From the NCBI RefSeq assembly GCF_003334405.1, contig NZ_QOWM01000001.1: a stretch of DNA of 64,000 bases, one strand, 5' to 3'. The notes below the pieces were generated by a model, which did not search any database, had not been told where the DNA came from, and was given only the letters and a program-made list of their open reading frames with translations. A program made the translations under genes and the position numbers. Below, piece after piece: positions 62,419 to 63,944 of this stretch; positions within the stretch are counted from its first letter, which is position 1, and every line of letters begins with the position of its first letter. This DNA comes from Escherichia coli. GTDB taxonomy: Bacteria > Pseudomonadota > Gammaproteobacteria > Enterobacterales > Enterobacteriaceae.

Positions 62419-62661
62419 ATGATTAATTTATGGATGTTTCTCGCCCTGTGTATTGTCTGCGTAAGCGGCTACATCGGTCAGGTACTGAACGTGGTATCGG
62501 CGGTCTCTTCTTTCTTCGGCATGGTGATCCTCGCTGCACTCATTTATTACTTCACCATGTGGTTAACTGGCGGTAATGAACTAGTGACGGGGATATTTAT
62601 GTTTCTTGCCCCGGCTTGTGGCTTGATGATTCGCTTTATGGTGGGGTATGGCAGGCGGTAG
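62419..62661 (+). CDS. yfdY: small membrane protein YfdY (80 aa)
   Basis: 80-aa ORF with two hydrophobic helices. Confidence 0.75.
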   Translation: MINLWMFLALCIVCVSGYIGQVLNVVSAVSSFFGMVILAALIYYFTMWLTGGNELVTGIFMFLAPACGLMIRFMVGYGRR

Positions 62662-62737
62662 TGGGTCAGGATGGCTCATTTGGGCAGGTGTTCACATCAG
62701 CATCAGACATGATTGTTCACCTGCCATGTGAAAGACG

Positions 62738-63013
62738 CTATCGCACAGGATGAATAAGATAATTCGCCTTTGTCGGAAAAGGGGGCGGCATTTCTTCTGT
62801 GAGGTTTAATGGTGGCGCATCTTCTCTCATCTTAAACAAAATCGCCTGTGATGGCTGAAGTTTTGTAGAGTGTGTGGTCGTCATCGCTGATGTTTTTTCA
62901 GTCTCTTTATAGCTCCTCTCACTTCCACCACCCGAAATGGAAAATGCAAAAACATTGCATGCCATAATAGAGACCAATAAAAATAAGCTGAAAAGTATTA
63001 AGTTTACTTTCAT
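62738..63013 (-). CDS. ypdI: small lipoprotein YpdI (91 aa)
   Basis: Signal peptide with lipobox-like MAC (LLVSIMACNVF); AT-rich. Confidence 0.75.
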   Translation of the reverse strand: MKVNLILFSLFLLVSIMACNVFAFSISGGGSERSYKETEKTSAMTTTHSTKLQPSQAILFKMREDAPPLNLTEEMPPPFPTKANYLIHPVR

Positions 63014-63155
63014 AGAAAGTTATCCTGAAAATGGTTCACTGAGAACCTACGATGTTATGGCTGTATTTACATTTAATTAATCAGTATTTACATCGATATA
63101 ATAAATGACATCTCTTTGTGGTATATAAGAATAGTTCTCTGCGACAGGAAGCATA

Positions 63156-63213
63156 TTCCTACAATTGTAAGACTAAAATACTTCTTGCGATAATAACTAC
63201 AACTGTAAGATAA
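63156..63213 (+). promoter_or_regulatory. two tandem EvgA-box-like inverted repeats upstream of yfdX
   Basis: ttcctacaattgtaagac (63156-63173) and aactacaactgtaagata (63195-63212) each resemble the EvgA half-site pair TACA-N2-TGTAAGA. Confidence 0.45.
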
Positions 63214-63308
63214 CCCTTTCAAAATGACCGTTGCTCTCTGATTTCTCATTTCATGCTCACCCAATATGATGGCGGCGTTTTCTAAAACTGTTAAAGAATG
63301 AGGTAAGT

Positions 63309-63944
63309 ATGAAACGTTTAATTATGGCCACGATGGTCACAGCAATTCTGGCATCTTCAACTGTATGGGCTGCTGATAATGCTCCGGTAGCGGCACAACA
63401 GCAAACTCAGCAAGTTCAGCAAACCCAGAAAACGGCAGCGGCAGCAGAGCGTATCTCTGAACAAGGTTTATATGCGATGCGTGACGTGCAGGTAGCGCGC
63501 CTGGCTCTGTTTCATGGCGATCCAGAAAAGGCAAAAGAACTGACCAATGAAGCTTCCGCTTTGCTGTCAGATGACAGTACCGAATGGGCAAAGTTCGCTA
63601 AGCCAGGTAAAAAGACCAATCTCAATGATGACCAATATATTGTCATTAATGCATCTGTCGGAATTTCTGAGAGTTATGTAGCAACTCCCGAAAAAGAAGC
63701 CGCGATAAAAATTGCCAATGAAAAAATGGCGAAAGGGGATAAAAAGGGCGCAATGGAAGAGCTTCGCCTGGCCGGTGTTGGCGTAATGGAAAACCAATAT
63801 CTGATGCCACTTAAACAGACTCGTAATGCACTTGCTGATGCGCAGAAACTGCTTGATAAAAAGCAATACTACGAGGCAAACCTGGCGCTTAAAGGTGCGG
63901 AAGATGGAATCATCGTCGATAGCGAAGCACTGTTTGTGAACTAA
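63309..63944 (+). CDS. yfdX: periplasmic protein YfdX (211 aa)
   Basis: Signal peptide ([21 protein letters not shown]) plus a helical Q/A-rich mature region. Confidence 0.88.

Follow-up and report, generated by a model that had tools for sequence, protein, structure and literature searches.

Paired EvgA-type inverted repeats between ypdI and yfdX of Escherichia coli, probable operators of two back-to-back promoters

The divergent ypdI/yfdX locus and its two palindromes

The window, by which we mean the whole 64-kb stretch of DNA that was analysed, ends in a region of the E. coli K-12 type, ypdA-alaC-lpxP-yfdY-ypdI / yfdX. The intergenic region between ypdI and yfdX spans 295 bp and has a G+C content of 33.6%, against 51.6% for the window, in keeping with the AT-rich setting described in the initial annotation, which had also named the downstream gene correctly as yfdX; the divergent gene on the upstream side is ypdI. 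A scan of positions 62600-63500 against Rfam for structured RNA returned nothing credible. The features of the locus, together with the segments of other genomes with which it was compared, are collected in Table 1.

Table 1. Features of the ypdI/yfdX locus and of compared segments (numbers without a prefix are window positions; L numbers are compared segments; bits are scores of the leave-out weight matrix)
Feature	Position	Strand	Description
ypdI CDS	62738..63013	-	91-aa lipoprotein, divergent from yfdX
ypdI -10, TATTAT	63098..63103	-	Predicted; invariant in eight E. coli haplotypes; puts box 1 centre near -73.5
ypdI-side heptamer, TCTTATA	63124..63130	-	Exactly 25 bp from box 1
Box 1	63156..63173		18-bp EvgA-type inverted repeat TTCCTACAATTGTAAGAC; 1 mismatch to TTCYTACANNTGTARGAA; 19.1 bits
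Inter-box spacer	63174..63193		First 11 bases polymorphic in E. coli; TTGCGATAA invariant
TTGCGATAAT	63185-63194		Directly upstream of box 2; identical in Yersinia and in every E. coli haplotype examined
Box 2 (18-bp consensus register)	63194..63211		Inverted repeat TAACTACAACTGTAAGAT; 3 mismatches to TTCYTACANNTGTARGAA; 14.9 bits
yfdX-side heptamer, TCTGATT	63237..63243	+	Exactly 25 bp 3' of box 2
PyfdX -35-like hexamer, TTCTCA	63243..63248	+	Predicted from consensus scan only; weak
PyfdX -10, TATGAT	63265..63270	+	Predicted; puts box 2 centre near -74.5
yfdX CDS	63309..63944	+	211 aa, Pfam YfdX family; ATG at 63309
38-bp duplication	Window equivalent 63159-63196; strain 503829, L014 246-335; strain IBS28, L020 251-378		Tandem duplication between boxes
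IS element of strain YJ6	L025 about 499-1556; insertion at window about 63186-63194		IS5 family
Heptamers of MG1655 EvgA promoters	frc L001 15475-15481; emrK L001 5482-5488; safA L002 6040-6046; ydeP L002 8699-8705; yegR L004 8382-8388		25 bp after the box
Yersinia vastinensis block	L006 3820-8150		yfdX-frc-oxc with both boxes and the frc box

Both palindromes of the initial annotation do occur in the window: ttcctacaattgtaagac occupies 63156-63173 and aactacaactgtaagata occupies 63195-63212. Their distance needs correcting from the 22 bp given originally: 21 bp separate the two 18-mers as quoted, or 20 bp when they are taken in the consensus register, and they lie 38 bp apart from centre to centre. 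Counted back from the yfdX ATG, the start of box 1 is at 153 bp and the end of box 2 at 98 bp, where about 100-150 bp had been given. The exact core TACANNTGTAAGA occurs in just two places on both strands of the window, namely in the two boxes; with one mismatch permitted, the sole additional match is the reverse reading of box 1 (mean of 0.5 matches in shuffled sequence).

The consensus of the EvgA box, which we take to be TTCYTACANNTGTARGAA, was used at the outset as a lead, tested on MG1655 DNA and afterwards re-derived from five other regulon promoters of that strain; no sequence of an EvgA box or consensus string was found in the literature searched. At up to two mismatches, TTCYTACANNTGTARGAA is found in MG1655 upstream of emrK/evgA, frc, safA, ydeP and yegR and at yfdX box 1, and the frc box is both a perfect palindrome and a perfect match to the consensus. 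A weight matrix trained on the boxes of the five other EvgA-regulon promoters, with the yfdX boxes left out, ranked box 1 first and box 2 second among all sites in the window. Across about 100 kb of unique sequence scored in this way, the sites exceeding box 2 were limited to the known boxes and a single one within mdtE. By their base sequence, both palindromes are of the EvgA-box type, and the likeness to the EvgA recognition repeat that the initial annotation had pointed out is borne out by the two top matrix scores, by conservation among haplotypes (see below) and by the literature on inverted repeats at yfdX. Their layout is that of the 7-2-7 sites of NarL, in which inverted heptamers 2 bp apart are bound by a dimer of a regulator with a GerE/LuxR-type helix-turn-helix and lone heptamers are also used; the sequence of the heptamers and the regulator are different.

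Several lines of published evidence tie yfdX to EvgA. PMC3720670 (citing Masuda and Church, 2003) describes, in general terms that do not single out a box, inverted repeats bound by EvgA that induce yfdX and yfdWUVE, and in PMC5706723 PyfdX-yfp serves as the EvgA reporter, with direct activation of PyfdX by phosphorylated EvgA stated there after Itou (2009). Target genes of the EvgA regulon are induced by mild acid or by constitutive evgS; yfdX rose by log2 6.97 in an evgS-constitutive mutant (supplement of PMC4283999) and is among the most strongly acid-induced genes in published data. In three published data sets, the mRNA of ypdI goes up together with that of the EvgA regulon. It increased by log2 2.75 in the array of the evgS-constitutive mutant (supplement of PMC4283999) and 5.5-fold upon exposure to glutathione, alongside yfdX, yegR, ydeO and emrK, with frc and oxc likewise reported as induced (PMC5811628). 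In the third set, ypdI mRNA reached an RPKM of about 1.1 at pH 7.6, about 11 at pH 5.8 and about 2.9 at pH 4.4, and ribosome footprints on ypdI did not rise at pH 5.8 (PMC10746267, Table S3). A ChIP-seq paper on acid resistance contains no EvgA data for the ypdI/yfdX locus. The expression of ypdI fits a weak EvgA-dependent promoter without proving direct control, and the co-induction is possibly indirect.

The palindromes could instead serve mainly another regulator of the NarL/FixJ family, e.g., RcsB with or without RcsA, ypdI being linked to colanic acid. The RcsAB box, presumably TAAGAATATTCCTA, is approximated by two 14-mers at 63126-63139 and 63148-63161 (3 and 2 mismatches, respectively), which make up two of the five such matches in the window, and RcsB is described in the literature as a regulator of yfdX in K. 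pneumoniae. However, the 18-bp repeat is common specifically to promoters of the EvgA regulon, and yfdX induction tracks EvgS/EvgA activity. The best match to the published Klebsiella RcsB pattern, moreover, has 2 mismatches, and matches with up to 3 mismatches occur about 7 times per kb across the window, which is a background level. We consider this the most improbable of the explanations weighed here. As a separate observation, the two RcsAB-like 14-mers sit upstream of the colanic-acid-related ypdI, and one of them overlaps the left half of box 1.

A fixed distance from box to promoter

When the six EvgA promoters of MG1655 were aligned on their boxes, a heptamer appeared exactly 25 bp after the box, reading TCCTATT at safA and yegR, TCTTATT at ydeP, TCCTCTG at emrK and TCTGATT at frc, with a -10-like hexamer about 20 bp beyond it. 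The pattern TC[CT][TG][AC]T[TGA] lies at exactly +25 in all six gene-ward orientations, box 2 being used for yfdX, and in none of the five orientations that lead away from the gene at single boxes; its frequency is 0.0012 per position. Within the 295-bp intergenic region it occurs only twice, once per strand, and each occurrence is 25 bp from a box. This rule is a product of the present analysis and no published criterion; some of the promoters behind it are paralogues of one another (safA of ydeP, frc of yfdX), and its last position was widened after TCTTATA had been seen on the ypdI side, so that TCTTATA matches the strict E. coli pattern at 6 of 7 positions.

Taken as a whole, the succession of box, 25 bp, TCYKATT and -10 element is found from box 2 on the plus strand and from box 1 on the minus strand, and from neither box in the opposite orientation. 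Read on the plus strand, box 1 has no heptamer at +25, which leaves box 2 alone in the register of yfdX; read on the minus strand, box 1 stands in the same register as the boxes of safA and ydeP. The position of the predicted PyfdX -10 element is kept in other genera as TATGAT, TATTCT, TATGCT or TAAGCT. The Cappable-seq supplements have no entry near yfdX or ypdI. The site within the mdtE coding sequence (MG1655 3659886-3659903; segment L003 5887-5904), a strong EvgA-box-like match with the sequence TTCTTACGCATGAAAGAA and a score of 17.8 bits, has no heptamer at +25 in either direction.

The boxes of ydeP, safA-ydeO, yegR, frc and emrKY/evgAS share the 18-bp TTCYTACANNTGTARGAA, a 25-bp distance to TCYKATT and a -10 element. 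The ypdI/yfdX locus differs from them in having two boxes 38 bp apart, each facing its own promoter, in that the box proximal to yfdX is the weaker match, and in that the number of boxes varies by strain. A parallel in layout is emrK/evgA, where an EvgA palindrome likewise lies between divergent EvgA-regulated operons; there, however, one box is shared and a heptamer is found at +25 on the emrK side only, whereas ypdI/yfdX has a separate box for each direction. An extra half-site-like sequence, TAGTAAGAAG (L001 5532-5543), abuts the box in the emrK/evgA intergenic region, which would thereby have three consecutive half-sites.

The heptamer has TCYKA in common with the EvgA half-site, and its T/G alternative is the same as that which distinguishes the E. 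coli half-site TCYTACA from the half-site TCTGACA of Buttiauxella and Klebsiella. From these two likenesses we infer that the heptamer may be a third, promoter-proximal EvgA half-site adjoining the -35 region. BvgA of Bordetella, a homologue of EvgA, binds TTTCCTA-like heptad half-sites far upstream of a weak -35 element, with possible secondary binding beside the -35 element, where the heptamer lies at ypdI/yfdX. BvgA dimers are described as abutting at steps of about 22 bp down to -35; in contrast, the second E. coli box lies 38 bp upstream and points the other way.

Conservation and variation of the two boxes

Eight E. coli haplotypes with 87-100% identity were compared. Among the 32 specified box positions a single one is polymorphic, whereas in the rest of the intergenic region 56 of 263 are (one-sided Fisher p = 0.0066), and 3 of the 4 central N positions are variable, as expected if they are unspecified. 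The specified positions of the boxes are under purifying selection, and the central NN is free to vary. These data bear on the proposal that box 1 is the sole working EvgA site, activating yfdX from about -112, with box 2 as a decaying relic or a chance likeness. The 3 mismatches of box 2 to the consensus and its poor left half, TAACTACA against TTCYTACA, would agree with decay; yet box 2 is the second-best site in the window, its specified positions are nearly invariant next to a variable central dinucleotide, and it is the only box in the canonical yfdX register, at a position kept in Yersinia, Buttiauxella, Dryocola and Klebsiella. We consider this proposal very unlikely. The idea that the two boxes arose by recent tandem duplication was rejected because the 20 bp following each box are unrelated, the boxes alone being alike.

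The sequence just upstream of box 2, TTGCGATAAT, can be read as an extended -10 element (TGnGATAAT). An alternative promoter running through the boxes, TTGTAA-18-GATAAT with TG, spanning 63165-63194, would place its start on box 2; it was not adopted, as its -35 element is not kept in Yersinia and the promoter is absent from Buttiauxella, although TTGCGATAA is invariant.

The distance between the boxes differs among E. coli strains. A 38-bp tandem duplication between the boxes is present in 414 of 5426 complete E. coli genomes and gives rise to three boxes, the third being a hybrid, TAACTACAATTGTAAGAC; strain IBS28 has four, and operator number at the ypdI/yfdX locus is accordingly variable. 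In strain YJ6, an element of the IS5 family separates box 1 from box 2, its insertion having duplicated 9 bp of target sequence, GATAATAAC; an allele similar to this insertion was flagged in strain ETEC6. Through these alleles the distance from box to box, which is 38 bp in the window, grows to 76 bp, 114 bp or about 1.1 kb, and in the three-box, four-box and IS alleles the 25 bp are preserved both from box 1 to the heptamer on the ypdI side and from box 2 to that on the yfdX side.

Related loci in other genera were collected by a scan of a genome collection with exact peptide patterns, which gave nine loci, and by protein search and contig look-up for further genera. The yfdX promoter modules of Klebsiella (kvhAS-yfdX-hdeDB), Buttiauxella and Dryocola are orthologous to that of E. 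coli, and the 25-bp rule holds on both sides. In Klebsiella pneumoniae, a single perfect palindrome, GTCTGACAGCTGTCAGAC, is followed by TCTGATT 25 bp to the right and TCTTATT 25 bp to the left. Dryocola has two abutting boxes, each 25 bp from its own heptamer. In Buttiauxella, yfdX diverges from hdeD-hdeB-gadB, and genes resembling evgS and evgA lie downstream. The proximal palindrome, a strong one, occupies the register of box 2, and a second, weaker box lies 20-21 bp farther upstream; the 25-bp distance leads from the former to TCTGATT on the yfdX side and from the latter to TCTTATT on the hdeD side. Genes resembling evgAS adjoin yfdX in all three of these genera; the yfdX loci of Hafnia and Edwardsiella have another context without evgAS-like neighbours, and no box was found there. 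The Klebsiella-type loci differ from E. coli in that the half-site is TCTGACA and not TCYTACA, the divergent gene is hdeD and not ypdI, and the boxes are fused (Klebsiella) or abutting.

The divergent promoter of these loci has a counterpart in E. coli. The ypdI-side heptamer TCTTATA is homologous to the hdeD-side TCTTATT of Klebsiella, Dryocola and Buttiauxella, and the module around it, TCTTATTTAC in Klebsiella-type loci and TCTTATATACC in E. coli, is homologous as well, the E. coli element being recognisably the same as the TCTTATTTACY found on the hdeD side elsewhere. Judging from this likeness, the ancestral divergent promoter seems to have been retained in E. coli while the gene beside yfdX changed.

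The yfdX-frc-oxc module of Yersinia vastinensis resembles that of E. coli, its YfdX being 83% identical in amino acid sequence, but ypdI is absent. Box 2 and the yfdX module are kept, the minus-side heptamer is lost, and box 1 is altered in both core halves (TACC..TATA) and still recognisable. Similarity to E. coli begins about 30 bp upstream of box 1, which suggests a horizontal transfer of the whole regulated module. A 241-bp scaffold of Limosilactobacillus vaginalis (L013) encodes a fragment 100% identical to the C-terminus of E. coli YfdX and is probably an assembly contamination.

These comparisons also bear on the possibility that the two boxes are cooperative tandem operators for yfdX only, the strong box 1 helping a second dimer of phosphorylated EvgA onto the weak box 2 and the response of ypdI being indirect or incidental. 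Conservation of both boxes across the eight haplotypes would be accounted for, as would the strength of PyfdX, which is among the most strongly induced EvgA promoters. A better-matching box 1 combined with a weaker box 2 also resembles the primary and secondary arrangement known for BvgA, and box 1 is recognisable in Yersinia in the absence of ypdI. However, the inter-box distance is 0, 18, 20-21 or 38 bp across genera (38 bp in E. coli and Yersinia, 18-21 bp in Dryocola and Buttiauxella, with Klebsiella having one box) and extends in E. coli alleles to the longer values given above, so that the conserved, helically phased spacing of cooperative tandem sites in a BvgA-like array is not seen. 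The 38 bp of E. coli correspond to 3.6 helical turns, which would put the two dimers on different sides of the helix. Furthermore, five other EvgA promoters function with one box only, placed in the register of box 2, and box 1 has a minus-strand heptamer and -10 element of its own. Cooperation for yfdX only thus appears unlikely. Taken as a pair that acts jointly on yfdX, the tandem boxes of the initial annotation are not supported: box 2 alone is in register for yfdX, box 1 is in register towards ypdI, and the distance between them is free to vary. The yfdX-side heptamer at 25 bp from its box recurs in Yersinia, Buttiauxella, Dryocola and Klebsiella.

Two probable back-to-back promoters and their significance

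The arrangement is probably best explained as a pair of EvgA operators on two back-to-back promoters, with box 2 serving yfdX and box 1 serving ypdI. This explanation draws on the sequences, rarity, conservation and register of the boxes, all computed here, and on the literature for the EvgA dependence of yfdX and the co-induction of ypdI; the binding of EvgA to each individual box, the part played by the heptamer and the positions of the two starts are its inferred components. EvgA, a regulator of the NarL/FixJ type, would bind as a dimer to the 7-2-7 inverted repeat TCYTACA-NN-TGTARGA. Mild acid sensed by EvgS would lead to occupation of both boxes by phosphorylated EvgA. From box 2, whose centre precedes the predicted yfdX start by about 74 bp, EvgA would activate the yfdX promoter with its poor -35 element, and from box 1, with its centre about 73 bp upstream of the predicted minus-strand start, it would activate the divergent ypdI promoter. 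Each box would be tied to its own core promoter by the fixed module of box, 25 bp, TCYKATT, about 20 bp and -10 element. Box 1 may in addition raise EvgA occupancy at the weaker box 2, although the data do not require it. Two points stand against the assignment of one promoter to each box: the induction of ypdI is modest with flat ribosome occupancy at pH 5.8, and box 1 is recognisable in Yersinia without ypdI, which could mean that box 1 helps yfdX.

A more far-reaching version of the two-promoter explanation can be put forward only tentatively. It would hold that ypdI is a direct and hitherto unassigned EvgA target driven by box 1 via an ancestral hdeD-type promoter retained after gene replacement, that all EvgA/KvhA-dependent promoters share the module of box, 25 bp and third heptamer next to the -35 element, and that the number of boxes (2 to 4) is a natural variable repeat that may tune the acid response between strains. 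Were such a third heptamer to be confirmed, phosphorylated EvgA would make a second, promoter-proximal contact with the DNA.

yfdX is a textbook EvgA target and PyfdX a standard EvgA reporter, and the core finding is in this respect already known. Modest refinements of it are the register rule, the assignment of box 1 to ypdI and the variation in box number, which may already be contained in the primary EvgA literature. They matter since EvgS/EvgA, whose activity is read out with PyfdX, controls several efflux pumps and exponential-phase acid resistance in E. coli; which box drives yfdX is of consequence for the design and interpretation of PyfdX reporters, and strains with three or four boxes, or with an IS between the boxes, become relevant when natural isolates are compared. 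If the upstream box serves the divergent promoter, the small gene ypdI would join the direct EvgA regulon. The fixed 25-bp module, which does not amount to a new kind of system, provides a simple, testable rule for recognising real EvgA promoters.
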